42,936 nucleotides of DNA from a virus (taxonomy: Duplodnaviria; Caudoviricetes): positions 1-42,936 of IMG/VR virus record IMGVR_UViG_3300020306_000003. One strand, given 5' to 3'. The notes under the pieces were generated by a model. It had not been told where the DNA came from, did no database searches, and saw only the letters and a list, made by a program, of their open reading frames with translations. A program made the translations under genes and the position numbers. Position 1 is the first letter of the stretch; every line of letters starts with the position of its first letter. Shown piece by piece: positions 771-42,936 of this stretch.

Positions 771-934
771 TGTATCAAAGAGAATGGTTAGAAGAAGATC
801 GTAAAAGGGTATTGGATATGGAGAGGTGGTATGTCTTAGATGGCAGGCATCATCAAGATCATCCGATGCATGGAATTTATACAGGACTTTCAGCTAAAGC
901 TGATGAACTAGAGAAAGAAGATTTAGTGAGTTAA
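770..934 (+). CDS. 54-aa hypothetical cyanophage-type protein (MYQREWLEEDRKRVLDMERWYVLDGRHHQDHPMHGIYTGL...)
   Basis: Read by hand; translationally coupled to 702-770; WYxxDGR...HPxHGxYTGL pattern. Confidence 0.7.
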   Translation: MYQREWLEEDRKRVLDMERWYVLDGRHHQDHPMHGIYTGLSAKADELEKEDLVS

Positions 935-941
935 AATGAAA

Positions 942-1024
942 TAGCCCTACGATGCTTGCTGCTTGGTCGTGGTCAGCTAGGGTTAGATGAAGCCTCCTGA
1001 CTCCTGCGTTGTTGGGGGGTTTTG
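942..1024 (+). ncRNA. Candidate small antisense regulatory RNA (stem-loop displaying UUGGUCGUGGU, followed by a terminator)
   Basis: -10-like TAAAAT at 932-937; stems TAGCCCTA(942-949)/TAGGGTTA(978-985) and GCTG(958-961)/CAGC(974-977); loop 962-973; G-U pairs and the T-tail favour the + strand. Confidence 0.6.
992..1024 (+). terminator. Intrinsic terminator
   Basis: GCCTCCTGAC(992-1001)/GTTGGGGGGT(1011-1020) stem with G-U pairs, then TTTGTTG. Confidence 0.6.
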
Positions 1025-1073
1025 TTGTATCTAGCCATAGTTACGTCAGAATAGAGAAAGTTAAAAAAGGACT

Positions 1074-1262
1074 ATGCCTTACCTCACAAACAATCAAAGA
1101 ATGGAGTTAGGTCTTGAAGGTGCAAGCTGTGTTAAGCCTGAGACTTTAAAAAATGCTGATACGTCTAATGTTTACGTGGACGAGGAGGTTCAAGAACAGC
1201 TATTAGCTCCACCAGTAAGACCAACAGCTACAGTTGAAACAACTGAAGAGACAGAAGAGTGA
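1074..1262 (+). CDS. Hypothetical protein
   Basis: 62-aa ORF with AGGA upstream; stop overlaps the terL start (GTGA). Confidence 0.7.
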   Translation: MPYLTNNQRMELGLEGASCVKPETLKNADTSNVYVDEEVQEQLLAPPVRPTATVETTEETEE

Positions 1263-3025
1263 AAAGTTTATGGGAACCGTTACCTCCTCAATTAAGAGAT
1301 AGCTTTCCTAATTTCACTTGTTATCTGCTTAGAGAGTTGGGGTTAGCTGATGCCCCAACTAAGCAGCAGATTTCTGTTTGTAAATGGATGCAAAATGGGC
1401 CAGATCGTAGTCTTACTGTTGCTTTTCGTGGATTAGGTAAGTCAATTCTTGCGTCTTTTTATGCTTTATGGAGATTAAGAGTAGATCCAAATGAAAAGAT
1501 TCTGATTGTCTCTGCTACAGCAGTCAAATCAACTGACTTTTCGTCTTTTATGCTTCGTTGTATTGGAGAAATTGATATTCTTCAATGTCTTATGCCTGGG
1601 CCAGAAAATAGATTCTCTAATGTTGCTTTTGATGTAGGGCCAGCTCAAGTTGAACAGTCTCCGTCTGTTCGATCTATGGGTGTTATGGGTCAAACAACTG
1701 GACAAAGATGTACTTGTGCAATTCTTGATGATGTTGAAACTTTAGCTAACGTAATTACACAGCTAAAACAAGATAGAGTTGCACACGCTGTTGAAGAAAT
1801 ACAAAGTATCATAAAGCCAGAGGAGGGCCAGCTTTTACCCCGTAAAATATTATATTTAGGAACGCCACATACGGAAACAAGTATATATTTAAGGCTTGTG
1901 AGAGAACGGAACTATTCTGCTCGTTACTGGCCTGCGTTGTATCCGAAGGAGTTCGATTGCTACGAGGGCAGTCTCGATCCGACGATTGAACAAGAGGTCA
2001 TCGCGAATACCAGCCTCGTGGAAGAGCCGACTGATCCAGAGCGATTTGGGCATGAAGACATCCTCCAGAGAAAAGCATCCATGACCAAGGCGAGCTTTGA
2101 ACTTCAGTTCATGCTCAACACCCGATTAGCAACTTTAGATAAGTATCCAATCAGGCTTGGGGATCTCATGGTGATGGATCTTGATGGGAAAGCCCTACCC
2201 GAGACTTGTATATGGTCTAACCAACCTGATATGAGATTGCAAGACCTAGTTTGTGTCGGGCTTGGAGCTGATAGGTTCTACCATCGCCCAATATTTCAAA
2301 ATGGATGGGTGTCAAAAACCGAATCGTGGCGGTGTGTCTTAGCTATAGACCCTGCTGGACGAGGTAAAGACGAATTAGCTTGGGCAGTTTTAGCGGAATT
2401 AAATGGAAATTTATTCTTACTTGAATCTGGTGGGTCTACTTTGGGCTATGCCGATGAAGTTTTGCAATATCTTTCTGAAACAGCAAAGAAATGGGATGTT
2501 AACTATGTGGTGGCTGAGTCGAATATGGGCGATGGTATGTTTAGTGCCTTACTAAAACCGCACCTAACAAGAACACATCCATGCACCATCGAAGAAGTTA
2601 GACATAACATCCGTAAAGAAGAAAGATTATGTGACACACTCGGCCCTTTAATTCAGCAACATCGTCTTATTGTTAATAGTCGAGTCATTAAAAATGATTA
2701 TCGTCTAACTGATGAAGATCCTGAACATGGATATTCACGAAGCCTTTTTTGGCAAGCCTCAAGATTGACACAAGAAAGGAATTGCCTCTCACATGATGAC
2801 CGCCTTGACGCTCTTGCTATTGCAGTCGGCTTTTTTGTTGAGTCAGCCGCCCAAGATCAGCAAGTTCAACAACAAGCTAGAAAAGATCAACTCTTCCAAG
2901 ACGAATTAGAAGCTTGGATGGATGAGACAACAGGTTCTATTGACTCAATAGCTTTCGGTTTTAAGAAAAAAACTACTTCGGGGAGAGCTTACGGAGGGGT
3001 TCGACGTTTGAAGGTGGGGTCTTAA
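1259..3025 (+). CDS. terL: Terminase large subunit (T7 gp19-like)
   Basis: AFRGLGKS Walker A, ILDDVE Walker B, YLGTPHT, nuclease motifs IDPAGRGKDE and HDDRLDALA. Confidence 0.97.
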   Translation: MKSLWEPLPPQLRDSFPNFTCYLLRELGLADAPTKQQISVCKWMQNGPDRSLTVAFRGLGKSILASFYALWRLRVDPNEKILIVSATAVKSTDFSSFMLRCIGEIDILQCLMPGPENRFSNVAFDVGPAQVEQSPSVRSMGVMGQTTGQRCTCAILDDVETLANVITQLKQDRVAHAVEEIQSIIKPEEGQLLPRKILYLGTPHTETSIYLRLVRERNYSARYWPALYPKEFDCYEGSLDPTIEQEVIANTSLVEEPTDPERFGHEDILQRKASMTKASFELQFMLNTRLATLDKYPIRLGDLMVMDLDGKALPETCIWSNQPDMRLQDLVCVGLGADRFYHRPIFQNGWVSKTESWRCVLAIDPAGRGKDELAWAVLAELNGNLFLLESGGSTLGYADEVLQYLSETAKKWDVNYVVAESNMGDGMFSALLKPHLTRTHPCTIEEVRHNIRKEERLCDTLGPLIQQHRLIVNSRVIKNDYRLTDEDPEHGYSRSLFWQASRLTQERNCLSHDDRLDALAIAVGFFVESAAQDQQVQQQARKDQLFQDELEAWMDETTGSIDSIAFGFKKKTTSGRAYGGVRRLKVGS

Positions 3026-22933: not shown

Positions 22934-24991
22934 ATGGCTGATACCTATGTGCAAGTTACGAATACTGGGCAGACTGTTTTCCCTCTGCCCTTTAGTTCTA
23001 ATTATTTATTGAAGTCTCATGTCAAGGTTTATAAGGGAAGAGATCTATTAGCAGAAACCCAAGACTCAACATTAAGCGACGGAACAGATTATACATTTAC
23101 CAGTGCAACGCAAATAACTCTTACTACTGGTCTTGCGGCTGGAGAAGAGTTAACGATTCAAAGGCAGACACCAAAAGATGCTCAGTTGTCTCCTTGGAGT
23201 GATGGATCAAATTTAACTGCGGAGGCGAAGAATATTGCAGATTTGCAGAATTTATATGTAGTTCAGGAGCAAGCAGATCTAAATGCTTTAGGAGCAACTA
23301 AAGCTATTGCTGCTACGACTGCGAGTAATACGGCGACTCAAACCGCGACTACTGCTACAAACACAGCCGATCTAGCCAAACTTGCTACTGATACTTACGT
23401 CCACGATGGAACAACTGTAAAAGGTGATGGTATTGGTGGGAATCCAATAGGTCTTGCTTTTACTATCAATCAATCAGGACAAGCGAAAATTGATGCTGAT
23501 GCAGCGAAATTAGCTACTGATACTTACGTCCATGACGGAACAAGTCTAAAAGGAGATGGTATTGGTTCTAATCCCCAAGGTGTTAAATATGCGGTTGATC
23601 AAGCTGCTGCTGCTAAGACTGCGACAGATACTTACGTTCACGATGGCACTAGCGTAAAAGGAGATGGTATTGGCGGAAATCCTCAAGGATTGGCCTACGG
23701 AATTGCAACGGCAAATACAGCAAAGACAGCCGTCGATACTTACGTTCACGATGGAACAAGTTTAAAGGGAGATGGGATTGGAGGGAATCCTCAAGGTGTA
23801 AAATATGCAGTTGATACCGCAACGGCGGCAGATGCGTTAGCCAATACCGCAGATGGAAAAGCCACTACATCACTAGATCGAGTTGCTACATATTTGCATG
23901 ACGGCACAAACCCAACAGGCGATGGTATTGGCAGTAATCCACAAGGTTTAGCTTATGGAATTACAACAGCCGATAATGCTAAAACTTCGGCTGATGCAGC
24001 AAAATTAGCCAGCGACAGACTAGTTGCTACGACTTCAAATAATGGAAATACTTGGACGTTAACGGGGAATAATACAAATCCATCAACAGATCCTAAAGGT
24101 GTTGGTTATGCCGTCACAACAGCAGAAGCCGCCAACGTCACAGCAAATGCAGCTTCAGCCACCGCAAATACAGCCCAAGCGGCGGTAGCAAATGCTGTTA
24201 TTTTTTCTCCTGTCACTAATGTTGCAGCCATACCAGCTAGTCCTAGCGATGGTGATTATATAGAAATTGGGAACAGTACAGGGATAGAGTCATTTACTCC
24301 ATTAGCTTCATTACCCAATGGATTTACTGGTGATAGTGGACTAACAGTAAAACTTAAATACACATCAGCAGGATCTACTTGGAATTATTTATCTTATTTT
24401 TCTAATGATTCTGAAGATAGGTATTTAGGTGTTTATGGGAAACATATTCCAACCCATAAAACTTTTATAGTCAAAGTTGTTACAAAGACTTCTGCTCATA
24501 AAGAGCATGGAAATGGCTCTACTCTTGGGTACACAATTGGAGGTATAGAAAGCCCACATCTAGAATTAATTCCTGGCAATGCGTATGTTTTTGATCAACA
24601 AGACGCTAGTAATGCAGGGCATCCAATAGCGTTTTATAAAAATCGAGATAAATCAGGCGGTGCTTATACTGTTGGCACTGCCTCGGTTGGAACCCCAGGT
24701 AGCACTGGTGCTTTAACAACACTTATCGTTAGTGATAACACTGAAAGTTATTTGCATTATGGATGCCAAAACCATGCGTACATGGGCGGCTCTATACAGT
24801 CAAATAATAGTTCTGGTGGTAGTGGTGCAACAGGTGGAGGCATAGATGCTTGGGTAATTGAAAATGAAACTACGGCTACAAGTTCATACGAGTTAAGTGC
24901 AAATAAAAATGCTATGGCTGTTGGGCCGATAGCACTGAATAGTTCGGTGACTATCACCGTTCCTAACAACCAAGTCCTTATTATTTTCTAA
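22934..24991 (+). CDS. Tail fibre protein (T7 gp17-like N-terminus, internal repeats, cupredoxin-like C-terminal region)
   Basis: N-terminal FPLPF..YL...V.V...IQRQT...DGSNLTAE...Q.LYVVQE adaptor pattern. Confidence 0.9.
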   Translation: MADTYVQVTNTGQTVFPLPFSSNYLLKSHVKVYKGRDLLAETQDSTLSDGTDYTFTSATQITLTTGLAAGEELTIQRQTPKDAQLSPWSDGSNLTAEAKNIADLQNLYVVQEQADLNALGATKAIAATTASNTATQTATTATNTADLAKLATDTYVHDGTTVKGDGIGGNPIGLAFTINQSGQAKIDADAAKLATDTYVHDGTSLKGDGIGSNPQGVKYAVDQAAAAKTATDTYVHDGTSVKGDGIGGNPQGLAYGIATANTAKTAVDTYVHDGTSLKGDGIGGNPQGVKYAVDTATAADALANTADGKATTSLDRVATYLHDGTNPTGDGIGSNPQGLAYGITTADNAKTSADAAKLASDRLVATTSNNGNTWTLTGNNTNPSTDPKGVGYAVTTAEAANVTANAASATANTAQAAVANAVIFSPVTNVAAIPASPSDGDYIEIGNSTGIESFTPLASLPNGFTGDSGLTVKLKYTSAGSTWNYLSYFSNDSEDRYLGVYGKHIPTHKTFIVKVVTKTSAHKEHGNGSTLGYTIGGIESPHLELIPGNAYVFDQQDASNAGHPIAFYKNRDKSGGAYTVGTASVGTPGSTGALTTLIVSDNTESYLHYGCQNHAYMGGSIQSNNSSGGSGATGGGIDAWVIENETTATSSYELSANKNAMAVGPIALNSSVTITVPNNQVLIIF
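23383..24120 (+). repeat. Five intragenic repeats of DTYVHDGTxxKGDGIGxNPxG plus one degenerate copy
   Basis: Visible in both protein and DNA (gatacttacgt(c/t)ca(c/t)ga(t/c)gg), with Ala/Thr-rich linkers. Confidence 0.9.
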
Positions 24992-34853: not shown

Positions 34854-37289
34854 TCAAGAAAACAAGTAAGGATTTGTTCCAATAAGTCTCGGATTAAGAC
34901 TTCCTTGTTTAGGCATATCAGGTAGTGACAACCCTGTTGACAGCTGAATTTCATCCACAAAACCTAGCAACCAATTAGGGGCGTAAAGCTCGTTAAATGT
35001 GTCGTGAAGTGTCTTATGAGCCACCCCAGCGTTAGCCGCATGTACCGCAAAACAATCGTGATTTGTAAGCACTTGTATGTTTTGTTCCACGGCCTTGTAA
35101 ACGAAGTTAATACAAAAAGCAGAATCCCAACTATGTGTAAAGTTCGCGGCTATTCCTTTATTGGCTTGTGTCGCACATAGAGGTGCATCTGTGGGTTGAT
35201 CTTTAATATTCATCGTTGCATGTTTGCCAAATAACATTGTCTGAATTTTTTTAATTCTTGGTTCTCTATCTGCAATTCTCATGGGCCATCCGCTTTGAGT
35301 TGTCCACTCCAAGGCGTAGCCCTTAGACATTACTTTTCTTGTTACTTTGTGGAGCCATTTTTTAAACTCAAGGCAAGGTTTAATTCTCTGTTTCGTTTCA
35401 TCCCATAAATGACTTGCTAAATATTTCGCAGGGATCGCTACCTCGTATGTGAAATTTTCAAGTGGCACGTATCCAAGGTGTTCATCTAATCGCTCAACCA
35501 AGGAATCACATAAGGACATATATGAACCGCCATACGGAGCTGCAAGGATTGGCTGCTTACATAAAGACCTATTAATTCCTTTCTGAAGCCATATTTGTGC
35601 TAACGCTTTGTCTCTCTCTTCTCCGAACTGGAGATCATGAACCAATCTTTCTGTGACTTTTTCAGCGACAAGGGTGTAAAGATCCCTTCGTTCATCGCCA
35701 AATAAATTGCACTCCCTCCCAACCTTTTCTGACCTCAACAGGGCCGCAAGTATCCCGCAGCCTGAAGTAGTTTGATCGAAGCGAACTGGACACCCTGTTT
35801 TACCTGTTTCAAGTACCTCTTTTACCCCTTTGCAAGCCTGTAAAAATTGCCAAGGATCGTTAGCGTTTCGCCACAATTCAAGCCTTCCAAGTGGATCTTC
35901 TGCCGCTGCCTTCATCAAATCAATATTCTTTCTTCCCCAATTCAAACGCTCATCCCATGACTTTCTTCCATATCCATAATGTCCAGCAGCTCCTTTCAGT
36001 AACCAATCAAAAGCCTCGTCGTTTAATGGCAGCTTTTCAGCAAAGTCCAGCATGGCCTTTTCGTAGTCTGGGCCTTGGTGAGATACATATTTATTAGATG
36101 TATAAAGCCTTGATCTATGGTCAGCGTGGTAAGCCTGATAAACAGTCCTATCTGCTAATCCTTCAGCCTCTTGTAACGCACGTTCAATCTTGATTCTTCT
36201 GGGTCTGTTTTGCTCTCTGTCTCTATGAGCCATTGAAGCAAGACGATTCCTAATCTTTAAGTCTTCTGGAGCTGGATCTTGCCCTAACCGTTCAGGAACA
36301 TCTAAGGGAATCTTCGCACAAGGCCACAAGCCCTCTGTTCCGTTCTCCCATGTATTTCTTTGGCATTCGATTATGTCCCGTTTAACGTGAAGTGGTGTCG
36401 CCTGGAGGTGGTTTGTCGCTACAAATGTTTTTGTTAGCTCTGCTCTTCTGTAATGCTCTATTGCTGTGGTGTCTTTTTCTTCAGCGTCGTGAATTGGAAC
36501 TCTGACAAAACATTCTTCGTTGCCTAATCTTCCTCCTCCGTACAATCCAGGCCAAGGAGCTGGAGGAGATACCATTGCCGAATAAGCAACTTTATAAGTA
36601 GAAGGTGGGCAGCTTTTGATTACTTTTTCAGCGTGATCGGTAGGAACTACAAATCTGGGAGTAGTACGACCAATCTTTCTTGTAATAACTTGAATCAAGC
36701 CTGTATGTATTAAATGATCTAAAAGGAACTGACCAATATGAAGACGACTTAAATCATTAAAAGGAAGAACGGGGCATCCCATCTTCCTCATTATTTCCAT
36801 TGTGCTGATCTTGTTCCGGCTCAAGCCTTGCTTCATTAAGTGCCGCAGCTCCACGGGACTTTTATCTGCCAGCCTCATTAATCGGATCTCTTTCTCAACC
36901 GCAGCTCCTAAGCCTTGACAGAAAGTGGCGATCCTTTGCCTTCTACTTAATTGATCGAGGGTCGCGACCAGGGCGATGGTTGCAACATGCTCTGGAGATT
37001 TAAAAGGATCAAAGAAAGGAATTGCAGCTCCATGAAATCTTGCTTTGTCTGGATTTTCTACAAAATCAATAAAAGTTTTATTTAATCGACTGCTTAAATC
37101 ATCAACTAATAATCCATATAATTTTCTGCCATAAATTAATGCACTCTCTTTTCCTATCTGTTTAAGTTTTCTTTCATTAGTTTTATGTGTTTCTTCTGCT
37201 CTTTTTTCTGCACGTAATTGTCGTGCTAATTGCTCTTTTTCAAGGGTCTGTATATCTTGCAACTCAGAAAAACGGGTGTTTACGACCAC
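34854..37289 (-). CDS. Single-subunit T7-like DNA-directed RNA polymerase
   Basis: DHRSRLY, motif A PVRFDQTTSG, motif B RSLCKQPILAAPYG, NFTHSWDS, motif C HDCF; in-frame GTG 37289 preferred, frame is open to 37472. Confidence 0.95.
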   Translation of the reverse strand: MVVNTRFSELQDIQTLEKEQLARQLRAEKRAEETHKTNERKLKQIGKESALIYGRKLYGLLVDDLSSRLNKTFIDFVENPDKARFHGAAIPFFDPFKSPEHVATIALVATLDQLSRRQRIATFCQGLGAAVEKEIRLMRLADKSPVELRHLMKQGLSRNKISTMEIMRKMGCPVLPFNDLSRLHIGQFLLDHLIHTGLIQVITRKIGRTTPRFVVPTDHAEKVIKSCPPSTYKVAYSAMVSPPAPWPGLYGGGRLGNEECFVRVPIHDAEEKDTTAIEHYRRAELTKTFVATNHLQATPLHVKRDIIECQRNTWENGTEGLWPCAKIPLDVPERLGQDPAPEDLKIRNRLASMAHRDREQNRPRRIKIERALQEAEGLADRTVYQAYHADHRSRLYTSNKYVSHQGPDYEKAMLDFAEKLPLNDEAFDWLLKGAAGHYGYGRKSWDERLNWGRKNIDLMKAAAEDPLGRLELWRNANDPWQFLQACKGVKEVLETGKTGCPVRFDQTTSGCGILAALLRSEKVGRECNLFGDERRDLYTLVAEKVTERLVHDLQFGEERDKALAQIWLQKGINRSLCKQPILAAPYGGSYMSLCDSLVERLDEHLGYVPLENFTYEVAIPAKYLASHLWDETKQRIKPCLEFKKWLHKVTRKVMSKGYALEWTTQSGWPMRIADREPRIKKIQTMLFGKHATMNIKDQPTDAPLCATQANKGIAANFTHSWDSAFCINFVYKAVEQNIQVLTNHDCFAVHAANAGVAHKTLHDTFNELYAPNWLLGFVDEIQLSTGLSLPDMPKQGSLNPRLIGTNPYLFS

Positions 37290-37352
37290 GTTATTCGCAA
37301 CACTCTCGCAATGCCAGCTCTTTTTGGTATCAAAAGAAAGTGTGTGACTTGC

Positions 37353-37367
37353 TCTACGGGGTCTAAG
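37353..37367 (-). promoter_or_regulatory. 15-bp motif copy CTTAGACCCCGTAGA
   Basis: Between the attP-like core and RNAP; right half matches the consensus. Confidence 0.45.
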
Positions 37368-37377
37368 ATGATGCTTA

Positions 37378-37396
37378 TGCGAATTATGAGTTCGCA
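37378..37396 (-). other. Candidate attP core: tRNA(CAU) anticodon-arm mimic TGCGAA-CTCATAA-TTCGCA
   Basis: 6-bp inverted repeats around a 7-bp spacer equal to a CAU anticodon loop; about 180 bp downstream of int. Confidence 0.7.
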
Positions 37397-37511
37397 ACCA
37401 GCCCAATGATAGCAAGGGATCTGAGCATTTTGCGTTGATCGTTTTTAAGGTAGAAAAAATATGTGCTTTCACAGTGCGAACGGTGCGAACTTACTTAAAC
37501 AAAAGTTGTAA

Positions 37512-37584
37512 TGGGGGTCGAGAGGATCGAACTCTCCTGAGCCAAATTATGAGTTTGGTGCGTTCACCAGATCGCTAGACCCCC
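37512..37584 (-). tRNA. tRNA with CAT anticodon (Ile2-lysidine or elongator Met), CCA not encoded
   Basis: Acceptor GGGGGTC/GACCCCC, D arm GCG..TGG..CGC, anticodon arm CCAAA-CTCATAA-TTTGG, T arm GAGAG-TTCGATC-CTCTC, discriminator A; lacks initiator features. Confidence 0.92.
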
Positions 37585-38417
37585 ACAAGAGCATTGTAAG
37601 CATTCGCATGTTCAGATCCATCCATATGAACATATCTAGTACACATCTGAGGATTGCTGTGACCTAACCAAGCAGCGATTTCTATGTTGGTGCAACCCTT
37701 TAGACCTAGATTTGTTGCACATGTATGTCTTGTTGCCTTAATGATAAAAGTCTTGGAAATACCACATTCATCTAGGGCTCGTCGCACCGCATGATGCAAT
37801 TCATTGTCTGATAAAGGCCAAACCAGCTCTCCTCTCATATTTAAAATCTGTTCAACGGCAGCTTTTAAAGCTTTAGGAGTTAAAGGAAGAGTTCTATTTC
37901 CTGTTTTGTTATCGTTATTGGCTTTAAAAAAAGAAACTAATCCTCTTTTTAAGCAGTAATCAGCTTTGGTGTGCCTTCTCATCTCAACAGGTCTGCAACC
38001 CATCTCACATAAAAAAACTAATTCCCTTGCTACATCCTTTCTATTTACTCTTCTCAAATATTCAACGCACAAATCAATTTCATTCTGAGTCCAAATAATT
38101 TGCTTGCGATTTTTAACTGGTAAATTTTTTGGAAATTGAGGTAAGTTTCTTACTCTGCCGTGGACAAGAGCCATTTCTTGAAAAACTCTTAGCTTGCTTG
38201 TCTTGTTATTAATTGTTGCAGGCAAATTATCTTTATATTCGGCTAAAAAATGCCTGTAATCCATAAATCTTCCAGCATCAATATCTTCTACTGGAGTATT
38301 AGGCCCAAAATAATTAACTGCTTCTAAGGCATAAATTCTTGTTGTTCTGGCTCCAGATTGATTTTTCCATTGATGAAGCCAAGCATCCTTAAATGCTTCC
38401 TTGATTGTGTAAGGCAT
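37575..38417 (-). CDS. int: Tyrosine recombinase / integrase
   Basis: GCR, KATRH (K in place of H in HxxR), WLGH, TRYV; 280 aa, apparently no arm-binding domain. Confidence 0.93.
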   Translation of the reverse strand: MPYTIKEAFKDAWLHQWKNQSGARTTRIYALEAVNYFGPNTPVEDIDAGRFMDYRHFLAEYKDNLPATINNKTSKLRVFQEMALVHGRVRNLPQFPKNLPVKNRKQIIWTQNEIDLCVEYLRRVNRKDVARELVFLCEMGCRPVEMRRHTKADYCLKRGLVSFFKANNDNKTGNRTLPLTPKALKAAVEQILNMRGELVWPLSDNELHHAVRRALDECGISKTFIIKATRHTCATNLGLKGCTNIEIAAWLGHSNPQMCTRYVHMDGSEHANAYNALVGV

Positions 38418-38427
38418 TGGTCGTGGT
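38417..38427 (-). promoter_or_regulatory. ACCACGACCA(A) leader motif abutting the int ATG
   Basis: One of six copies in early-gene leaders. Confidence 0.75.
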
Positions 38428-38438
38428 TTGTTTAGTTT

Positions 38439-38681
38439 TTATTTCCAGTTTTTTAAATATGGTTTCATTCGGTCTAAGAATTTTTGTGCTGTTGCTTTAG
38501 TGACATGATCTTCGCCCATAGATTCTCTTTCTTTATTAAGAATTAATTGCAATTCTTTAAGAGCTTCTTTTTCAGGCAAAGAATTAAGCGTTTTAAACAT
38601 ATTTAAAGCATCTACAAATGATTGAGGAATCATGGTTCCATCAATACTTGCAAAAGAATCGGGAATTTCAGGATTAGTCAT
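38439..38681 (-). CDS. Hypothetical protein
   Basis: 80-aa ORF with the leader motif abutting its ATG. Confidence 0.75.
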   Translation of the reverse strand: MTNPEIPDSFASIDGTMIPQSFVDALNMFKTLNSLPEKEALKELQLILNKERESMGEDHVTKATAQKFLDRMKPYLKNWK

Positions 38682-38691
38682 TGGTCGTGGT
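38681..38691 (-). promoter_or_regulatory. ACCACGACCA(A) leader motif
   Basis: Abuts ATG 38681. Confidence 0.75.
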
Positions 38692-38699
38692 TTTGTGGG

Positions 38700-39017
38700 T
38701 TAGATACCCTCAAGCGATCTGATCTTTGCTTTGCCTTTTTTAGAGAGCCTGACTCTGTATCTTCTGCCTTCCTCTGGGTCTATATAGATCTCTACAAGGC
38801 CAAGACAAGTTTCACGATGGCGAACAGTTTCACTGAGGGTGTGGACAATTCTTGAGGCTGATGCATTTGTTACATCAAACCTCTCTTCTATATCTCGATA
38901 CGTGCAACTCCCTTTTTCCGCAATGAATAAAAGAACTTGTGCGTGATGCACTGGAAAATTACCTGGGGCAAGAGAGCCCAATGATTCAAGAGCAGTTGAG
39001 AGTTTAGATAAATCCAT
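38700..39017 (-). CDS. MarR-like winged-helix regulator
   Basis: QVLLFIAE...TYRDIEE...TNASASRIV..L...GLV....DPEEGRRYRVRLSKKGK. Confidence 0.88.
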   Translation of the reverse strand: MDLSKLSTALESLGSLAPGNFPVHHAQVLLFIAEKGSCTYRDIEERFDVTNASASRIVHTLSETVRHRETCLGLVEIYIDPEEGRRYRVRLSKKGKAKIRSLEGI

Positions 39018-39208: not shown

Positions 39209-39223
39209 TTTACAGGGTCGTGG
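39209..39223 (-). promoter_or_regulatory. 15-bp motif copy CCACGACCCTGTAAA
   Basis: 13/15 identical to the copy at 30864-30878; lies between the two MarR-like genes. Confidence 0.5.
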
Positions 39224-40528: not shown

Positions 40529-41158
40529 TCATAGCCTTATTTGTATAGGCATTAACAGATACTCCAGATCGAAACCTTCTAACCCTTCAACATCACAACA
40601 GGCAGTAAAAAGAATTGGAGTTGTAGGATGATTAGTCACCATTTTCAAAGTTCCATTAGAGTATTTAGTCACCATTTGACAAAACTCTGAAAGATATTTT
40701 GAACTAAAAGCAATAGGTTTTTTAGGCTCATTGCTGAAAGAATCAGGAAATAATTGATTGTAGTTAGGGTAAACACCATCAAAATCCTGTAACTGATGTC
40801 TTTTTTCTAATAGATCTTTATGCTTTCCTTTTCCTCCTATAAATTCAATTGCGTTATCAGTACCGATAATTACATCCTTTGCATAGTTAACTTTTTTCTT
40901 AAATAGTTTGGCATCTAGTTTTAAGCCTATTGAACTATTGACCTTATAAAGATCACTAGCAGTTTTAAAAGGCATGACAAACCTAAAAAGTCTATGTCCA
41001 TCAGTGGATGCAATCTCAATACCTTTATCTGATTTGGTGGCATAGATACATTGAAGCAGTCGTTTTGCCTCGTCAGTACTCGCAAACTGAGCCGCAATAT
41101 GGAGAATAGGAGCCGGTAAACAGGCTTCAATGCCTGTAACCTCCTTATCTGTGGTCAT
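40529..41158 (-). CDS. DNA polymerase III beta-clamp (DnaN)-like protein, partial length
   Basis: IASTDGHRL, DGVYPNYNQLFP, IAFSSKYL, YLLMPIQI match clamp motifs; start ATG 41158 or TTG 41182, since the ORF-track start 41269 crosses a hairpin. Confidence 0.82.
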   Translation of the reverse strand: MTTDKEVTGIEACLPAPILHIAAQFASTDEAKRLLQCIYATKSDKGIEIASTDGHRLFRFVMPFKTASDLYKVNSSIGLKLDAKLFKKKVNYAKDVIIGTDNAIEFIGGKGKHKDLLEKRHQLQDFDGVYPNYNQLFPDSFSNEPKKPIAFSSKYLSEFCQMVTKYSNGTLKMVTNHPTTPILFTACCDVEGLEGFDLEYLLMPIQIRL

Positions 41159-41196
41159 TATCGGCCGTGTAGTAGTAGTCAAAATAAAAAACTCCT

Positions 41197-41207
41197 TTGG
41201 TCGTGGG
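41197..41207 (-). promoter_or_regulatory. Leader motif variant CCCACGACCAA
   Basis: Upstream of the clamp-like gene; one mismatch. Confidence 0.65.
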
Positions 41208-41792: not shown

Positions 41793-41803
41793 TTGGTCGT
41801 GGT
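41793..41803 (-). promoter_or_regulatory. ACCACGACCAA leader motif
   Basis: 17 nt upstream of ATG 41775. Confidence 0.75.
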
Positions 41804-42259: not shown

Positions 42260-42270
42260 TTGGTCGTGGT
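42260..42270 (-). promoter_or_regulatory. ACCACGACCAA leader motif
   Basis: 10 nt upstream of ATG 42249. Confidence 0.75.
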
Positions 42271-42649: not shown

Positions 42650-42659
42650 TGGTCGTGGT
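42650..42659 (-). promoter_or_regulatory. ACCACGACCA leader motif
   Basis: 14 nt upstream of ATG 42635. Confidence 0.75.
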
Positions 42660-42859: not shown

Positions 42860-42936
42860 CAGTAATAAGACCAGGGTGAAGAGCTGATGCGAATTTATTA
42901 TTCGCAGCCAAGTCAGTCCCTCACAGCCCCTATGCC
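42860..42936 (+). repeat. 77-bp exact terminal repeat, copy 2 (probable assembly overlap)
   Basis: Identical to 1-77. Confidence 0.95.

Follow-up and report, generated by a model that had tools for sequence, protein, structure and literature searches.

The window, the whole 42,936-nt stretch of DNA analysed here, is a complete circular phage contig whose first 77 bases are identical to its last 77 bases, and the virus is likely a phage of marine cyanobacteria. The + strand carries the terminase and virion genes, and the − strand encodes a T7-like RNA polymerase, a primase/helicase, an exonuclease, an SSB, a tyrosine integrase, a tRNA, and a MarR-like regulator. Among the 38 ORFs scanned, no DNA polymerase was recognized, bar a marginal match on an early gene of 217 aa (40529–41182, − strand) that bears weak likeness to the DNA polymerase III beta (sliding) clamp. 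The large terminase (terL, 1259–3025, + strand) shares 77–80% identity with two MedDCM phages, 58% with Synechococcus phage S-SRP02, and at most 44% with other lineages. The window phage fits clade S, the S-SRP02-like clade of T7-like cyanophages defined in PMC12695635 (excerpt), judging from its nearest relatives, S-SRP02 and the MedDCM group, and from the DNA polymerase that was not found; our placement uses terminase identity and gene content, set against the definition as that excerpt gives it.

The RNA polymerase ORF (34854–37472, − strand; phrog_414) has a GTG start as called (37472) that is probably too early, with the profile match beginning at residue 76. On the same strand lie the tyrosine integrase gene (int, 37575–38417; phrog_1, E = 1e-26) and the MarR-like regulator (38700–39017; MarR_2, E = 2.9e-7). 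A full-length tRNA with a CAT anticodon (37511–37585, − strand) directly follows int and is a candidate attP. Its best matches (89–91%) fall in 1.5–1.7 Mb genomes of the Synechococcus order sample, and 22 nt around the anticodon match exactly the tRNAs of small cyanobacterial genomes; the size of the best-matching genomes suggests Prochlorococcus as the host. We found no integrated prophage of the lineage: two loci lie in genome contigs, and the terminase occurs in 5 of 401 cyanobacterial genomes. The contig stretch G369:C25, 12000–30915, contains phage-type genes with no host junction seen, in a follow-up that covered stretches other than L273 and L275–L277.

Upstream of terL, as throughout the lineage, lies a predicted small RNA of ~80 nt (943–1024, + strand; putative ends). 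It is preceded by a predicted −10 box, TAAAAT, which lies at 932–937 as the preliminary description had placed it and overlaps the stop codon of ORF 770–934, and by a weak −35-like TAGAGA (909–914). The RNA is predicted to consist of two hairpins. The first (942–985, + strand) has an upper stem in two alternative registers and bears the seed UUGGUCGUGGU (963–973), of which residues 963–968 form the predicted loop and 969–973 lie within a G-U-rich stem. The second (986–1026, + strand) is terminator-like, with a U-rich tail; its stem and loop vary among homologs, and the hairpin is retained. No ORF of at least 50 aa spans the unit, so that, judged by sequence, a predicted promoter and terminator without a coding frame sit together as expected of a trans-encoded base-pairing sRNA. 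A BLASTN search of 700–1300 against phage records matched only the short ORF upstream, and Rfam, proposed earlier as a check for a known family, returned no match to the unit in the window (E up to 1; the sole hit was a tRNA) or in eight related loci. Read coverage from four of six runs is limited to 672–829, with none over 932–1030, and bears neither way on a transcript. Shortly 3′ of the terminator, the heptamer CGTCAGA or CGGCAGA is kept (window 1044–1050; L192–L204); it is possibly a terminase-operon promoter, and CGTCAGA does not recur ahead of other late genes in the window.

The strand assignment is clear from folding. The + strand of 932–1030 folds at −35.9 kcal/mol (z −3.41) versus −14.6 kcal/mol (z 0.24) for the − strand, in agreement with the proposal that the hairpins work on the + strand only. 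The 12-nt loop of that proposal fared less simply. In the minimum-energy fold the loop has 6 nt, UUGGUC (963–968), with GUGGU paired to GCUGC, and forcing the 12-nt loop costs 6.1 kcal/mol more; its stem, however, is paired in 15 of 15 aligned homologs, as is the upper stem of the 6-nt register (100% for both). The 4-bp stem of the 12-nt register has changed on both sides at two of its four pairs, and that of the 6-nt register at one of eight. The lower stem is 72% paired in an alignment that is partly wrong there, and the seed is invariant. A YUNR motif is typical of the loops of antisense RNAs, and the UUGG of the predicted loop fits it.

The sequence complementary to this loop recurs at early genes. 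All seven copies described earlier were recovered: TGGTCGTGGT occurs exactly six times in the window, at 964, 38418, 38682, 41794, 42261, and 42650, and with one mismatch at 41198. Six of these lie at the starts of early genes, in − strand leaders, and the seventh lies inside the + strand unit. A genome-wide count bore out the suspected enrichment, with eight matches at up to one mismatch against a mean of 0.82 in shuffled sequences, none of 100 shuffles reaching eight; the eighth match, at 24817 inside a late ORF, is probably a chance one. From the 5′ end of the early strand, the tags precede ORF 42635–42318 (105 aa, the first early gene; tag at 42650–42659), ORF 42249–41908 (113 aa; 42260–42270), ORF 41775–41266 (169 aa; 41793–41803), the clamp-like gene (41197–41207), ORF 38681–38439 (80 aa; 38681–38691), and int (38417–38427). 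In the last two leaders the 11-mer takes in the A of the ATG, as had been reported. For the gene that follows the 41197 copy, TTG 41182 is the most likely start, and the mismatch in that copy is a true, non-wobble one. A T7-type promoter reading of the tags was rejected because two of them abut the ATG. Hairpins with a CUUCGG loop stand upstream of three tagged leaders (42307, 41897, and 41255, − strand), and the early genes resemble repeated cassettes.

Predicted binding energies single out the tagged leaders. Co-folding of the hairpin with the leaders gives a net gain of −6.9 to −9.9 kcal/mol for five targets, in the order above −9.9, −7.0, and −8.2 kcal/mol for the first three, −6.9 kcal/mol for ORF 38681–38439, and −8.0 kcal/mol for int. 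The gain is ~0 for RNA polymerase, two untagged early genes of the window, and the MarR-like gene, where no binding is predicted. When the loop was scanned for duplexes with 46 ORF starts, tagged leaders likewise took the five best scores (−18 to −19 kcal/mol); the scan missed the sixth because that ORF had been called from an upstream TTG. A further 8-nt core, 37 nt before ATG 39178 (39216–39223, − strand), is a doubtful target, with a net −2.1 kcal/mol from pairing that bypasses the seed. Two modelled features speak against an antisense role: the predicted fold has half of the core base-paired, and the net binding predicted for the sixth target, the clamp-like gene, is only −3.2 kcal/mol. 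The unit lies 1.2–5.4 kb from its putative targets, on the opposite strand and across the genome junction.

We asked how widely the arrangement is kept. A 17-mer from the hairpin matched 49 viral loci, 35 of them homologs and 14 chance coding matches, and the set was enlarged by terminase-anchored searches and four GenBank genomes, two of which L204 and L208 probably duplicate. Where the terminase match runs from the N-terminus, 59 of 77 loci, a partly redundant set of non-independent loci, have a late-strand TAnnnT, the seed, and a hairpin upstream of terL, and none of the 77 has the unit on the other strand. The proportion rises to 46 of 48 among loci with at least 1.5 kb of upstream sequence. 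Sixteen of the 18 misses have less than 1.5 kb upstream; of the remaining two, L218 reflects a limit of the pattern, its unit being present on individual inspection, and L248 is without explanation. Thirty-five loci, picked for variety with many near-duplicates left out, were inspected individually. TAnnnT begins 37–51 nt before the seed end in all 28 loci with an 8-nt core, at a distance fixed within each scaffold family and with its three middle letters varying; its background of 0.006 per position amounts to ~9% over this range, which was picked after data inspection. In a stricter but noisy automated test, only 15 of 35 loci had TAnnnT at 2–6 nt from the computed stem base, on its 5′ side. 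The late strand folds more stably than the early strand in 28 of 28 units, in a comparison whose trimming removed the terminator of several, the window's included, and so understated their z-scores, and all 36 units pass a hairpin test run with no shuffled control.

The scaffold around the seed is variable. Across unrelated scaffolds, 18 of 23 loci with the 8-nt core have a predicted loop of 6 nt; some scaffolds are long hairpins that present the seed in their loop, and the predicted RNA of the S31-C1 group, ~52 nt long, has the seed free at its 5′ end. The unit is retained from 37% to 65% GC. Because the seed is invariant within lineages and the stems vary with compensation, the unit must be under selection. 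A loop-free pattern scan returned at least 119 loci, almost all by chance, and found no homolog with another loop, since distant homologs also change the stem.

The constant position of the unit upstream of terL, on the same strand, is also what one would expect of a structured 5′ leader of the terminase operon, with abundant tagged early mRNAs tuning terL read-through or translation, or with pairing that stabilises or activates. Only 19 of 36 units end in a U-rich tail after their last hairpin, and transcription of many may therefore continue into terL; the 17 without such a tail favour a leader, as does the last hairpin abutting the terL start in S-SRP02 and G369. Yet the unit ends in a strong, U-tailed hairpin in 19 loci, the window among them, several lineages have the unit 1–3 kb and several genes before terL, and a strong anti-terminator was not seen by inspection. 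Antisense pairing over an AUG hinders ribosomes, and should do so here, given tags that overlap the AUG or come very close to it. We regard the terminase-leader explanation as unlikely.

The tags of the relatives show the same tie to start codons. Within 8 kb upstream of terL in 28 loci, counting copies other than the odd one in the RNA unit and collapsing tandem copies, 108 of 123 tags lie at most 30 nt from an ATG that opens at least 30 aa, against 23% of random positions; under a strict first-Met rule the figures are 65 of 123 and 7.5%. Only five copies in these loci have the opposite orientation. The odd copy heads an ORF of at least 30 aa in 2 of 36 loci. In 151 cyanobacterial genomes, tag plus ATG does not exceed a reversed-pattern control and is mostly absent from those of 1.5–1.9 Mb, so the tag is not a host signal. 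Tandem tag arrays of two to five units occur in early leaders of L194, L195, L197, L232, and L272.

Loop and leader motifs change together among relatives, as the preliminary description had asked of them. The core is CCACGACC in most loci, CCACGACT in L218, CACGACAAC in the S31-C1 group, CAACAACCACC in S-SRP02, CCAACCAAC in S38-C3, and CACCACCACC in L234 and G369. On a terminase tree with a midpoint root and two long branches, these amount to at least five independent core changes, and the tags changed with the seed each time. L218 branches within a set of loci that share its scaffold and have the common core, which its sister loci retain. Its own loop reads UUAGUC (G-to-A), and the corresponding T is found in all six of its tags. 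Tag position −1, immediately 5′ of the core, also follows the RNA (A in 56 of 57, C in 22 of 24, T in 4 of 4). At paired flank positions, 10 of 11 deviations still allow a G-U pair, a count of single copies near an ATG, excluding the non-wobble 41197 site of the window, that is small, clade-biased, and confounded by transition bias. A matrix of cognate energies would look alike for a protein-bound site and is circular because the leaders were chosen by their core.

Co-change alone does not separate the readings, since RNA pairing and a DNA site both predict it. The 10-mer could be an oriented, asymmetric DNA site (or an mRNA site) for a phage protein, the odd copy being another such site that fell in a hairpin by chance. 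The stoperators of mycobacteriophage L5 are protein-bound DNA sites of this oriented, asymmetric kind, and like them the repeat lies in intergenic gaps; all copies share one DNA orientation, some leaders have tandem copies, and the phage encodes a MarR-like protein. In many unrelated scaffolds, each genome places precisely one copy on the opposite strand, inside a promoter-hairpin unit, which this leaves unexplained, and a protein that binds the tag in mRNA needs no antisense copy. In S-SRP02, moreover, the RNA and the int leader show complementarity along 20 nt and again in a second, AUG-spanning block, with spacers of different length; this two-block complementarity is hard to read as a protein site, and the second block finds no account there. 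The palindrome TGCGAA-N7-TTCGCA, described below, is also a better candidate operator for MarR. We consider a protein site improbable.

Two other accounts of the copies were weighed. The tags might be unstructured, C/A-rich translation enhancers, with the odd copy a functionless inverted relic of a duplicated leader: the tags in the leaders are predicted to be largely unpaired, several tagged leaders have no Shine-Dalgarno sequence, and in S-SRP02 the odd copy has 20 nt in common with the int leader and stands at the head of an early-strand ORF of nine codons. The signs of selection on seed and stems noted above, and the persistence of the unit over so wide a GC range, make a relic very improbable; an enhancer role as such is compatible with antisense control. 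TGGTC is the T7 primase site and lies within each copy (the pentamer occurs 39 times on the + and 21 times on the − strand of the window), and S-SRP02 and S38-C3, with no annotated primase, have tags without GTC, as primase recognition sites would predict. But the conserved CGTGG, the start-codon tie, and the hairpin unit would all go unexplained, and the primase-less phages keep the same architecture, by which the primase account is largely refuted and, to our minds, scarcely credible.

The tag/antisense element is real and lineage-wide. From sequence comparison, we think it probable that the window segment encodes an antisense RNA with many targets, which prevents early genes and int from being translated. 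The conserved unit, the co-change, the start-codon tie, and the two-block complementarity of S-SRP02 all speak for the multi-target RNA first suggested for this segment. In the mechanism we propose, host RNA polymerase would make the ~80-nt RNA from a promoter recognized mainly by its −10 element. The exposed UUGGUC loop would start pairing, the weak G-U-rich upper stem would open, and the G/U-rich seed would form a 10–11 bp duplex with the C/A-rich tag. This duplex would cover or border the ribosome binding and start region, and the six early genes would be less translated. We infer repression, as opposed to activation, purely from where the tags lie.

The choice of tagged genes is selective. 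Tags stand before the integrase gene in 18 of 21 loci, before the MarR-like gene in 2 of 21, before SSB in 4 of 15, and before RNA polymerase in 0 of 20. The clamp-like gene, which occurs in a phage with no DNA polymerase found, is tagged in 4 of 4 loci. With int and the early cassette genes tagged and the MarR-like repressor and polymerase mostly not, the RNA may be the translational arm of a temperate switch; the three untagged integrases and the two tagged MarR genes count against this assignment. Since the polymerase is never tagged and MarR rarely, the RNA alone could not block the lytic programme. The earlier idea of an RNA-based immunity is accordingly weaker than proposed, the more so with no integrated prophage found; what the pattern would suit is a shutdown, during lytic growth, of the integrase and of the early programme run by host polymerase after their phase is over, with a like shutdown possibly also in the integrated state.

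Repressor and polymerase would be left to separate, protein-level control. A candidate for this protein arm is the palindrome TGCGAA-N7-TTCGCA, present exactly at 37378–37396, before the likely RNA polymerase start, and at 42888–42906 (= 29–47), before the early genes. At up to two mismatches it has four matches in the window, a number reached by 4 of 100 shuffles, and it was found exactly in only 5 of 282 loci; it is a candidate MarR operator, better than the 10-mer. The spacer of its first copy is the tRNA anticodon loop and may relate to the attachment site. In LUZ100, the MarR-like gene and int are co-transcribed (PMC10134795, excerpt); if the same holds here, the repressor would be made while int stayed silent. 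More speculatively, genome ends located between the early promoter and ORF 424 would make the RNA gene the last to enter the cell, where it could act as a timer.

The proposed control combines features of several known systems. The Hfq-dependent RNA GcvB has a G/U-rich seed and C/A-rich targets. Such sRNAs use a single conserved seed to pair with numerous leaders a short way 5′ of the ribosome binding site (PMC3879156, excerpt), and the present unit is alike in having one conserved, G/U-rich seed for many C/A-rich leaders. GcvB, however, is chromosomal and acts on host genes, and here the regulator and its near-identical tags share one phage genome and change together. The c4 RNA of P1/P7 has loops that pair with short regions near the ribosome binding site and block translation, with a specificity that varies between phages (excerpt of PMC12197685). 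Like c4, the unit would be a phage-encoded structured RNA whose loop pairs near a translation start; unlike c4, which has a single target mRNA, ant, it is a stand-alone unit on the opposite strand of three to eight separate genes including int, and the C4 covariance model has no match in the window or eight related loci. None of the early ORFs scanned belongs to an antirepressor family, the targets being int and small early genes. The CI RNA of P4 derives by processing from its own target transcript, between two target sites, and brings transcription to a premature stop at seqA and seqC (PMC4825925, in part); our unit resembles it as a small structured RNA with short complementary sites predicted in the phage's own genes and differs in having its own predicted promoter, on the opposite strand and up to 8 kb from start-codon targets. 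By our assessment, the unit is a new RNA family, given the absence of an Rfam match, and the control itself is of a known kind.

A close parallel to the tags is the SAS (Start Associated Sequences) of Cluster K mycobacteriophages, an asymmetric repeat in one orientation directly ahead of the start codon in non-structural genes. Four genomes also have one copy in the opposite orientation, not tied to a gene start, and the excerpted account leaves the function of the repeat open, RNA or protein binding included (PMC3203893). A start-codon repeat in one orientation with a lone inverted copy is common to both. SAS differ in containing a Shine-Dalgarno core and in sequence and host, and the passages on SAS in PMC3203893 describe no RNA gene at the opposite copy. 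By analogy, the lone inverted SAS copies are candidate antisense RNA genes, and lone inverted copies of start-associated repeats in other phages are worth searching for such genes. More broadly, we entertain as a tentative, less than even prospect a self-contained, lineage-wide RNA regulon of the lock-and-key kind, whether acting as an RNA co-repressor that silences a prophage and shuts out phages with the same tag or serving as a late-entry timer, which may explain start-associated repeats with a single inverted copy elsewhere. We found no paper describing the element in a literature search confined to open-access articles, and the words 'promoter' and 'motif' are absent from the main text of the S-SRP02 paper (PMC8790148).

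For integrase-bearing T7-like phages, only a MarR protein has been proposed as a control, and stable LUZ100 lysogens were not obtained (PMC10134795, excerpt). The window shares with LUZ100 a MarR-like gene next to the integrase and upstream of RNA polymerase; it departs from the control proposed there at the protein level and from the antisense RNA there, which lies in cis over structural genes (same excerpt). To the choice between lysis and integration, the present finding adds a conserved RNA layer that sets int and the early genes apart from the repressor and polymerase. With seed and targets named, the predictions are testable in the cultured pair S-SRP02/Synechococcus SR-C1. The natural seed and tag variants are ready-made specificity swaps and could possibly serve as orthogonal translational switches for cyanobacteria. 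Units of like layout with further seeds also lie upstream of terL in L209 and L215, two loci whose sequence does not reach the early genes.
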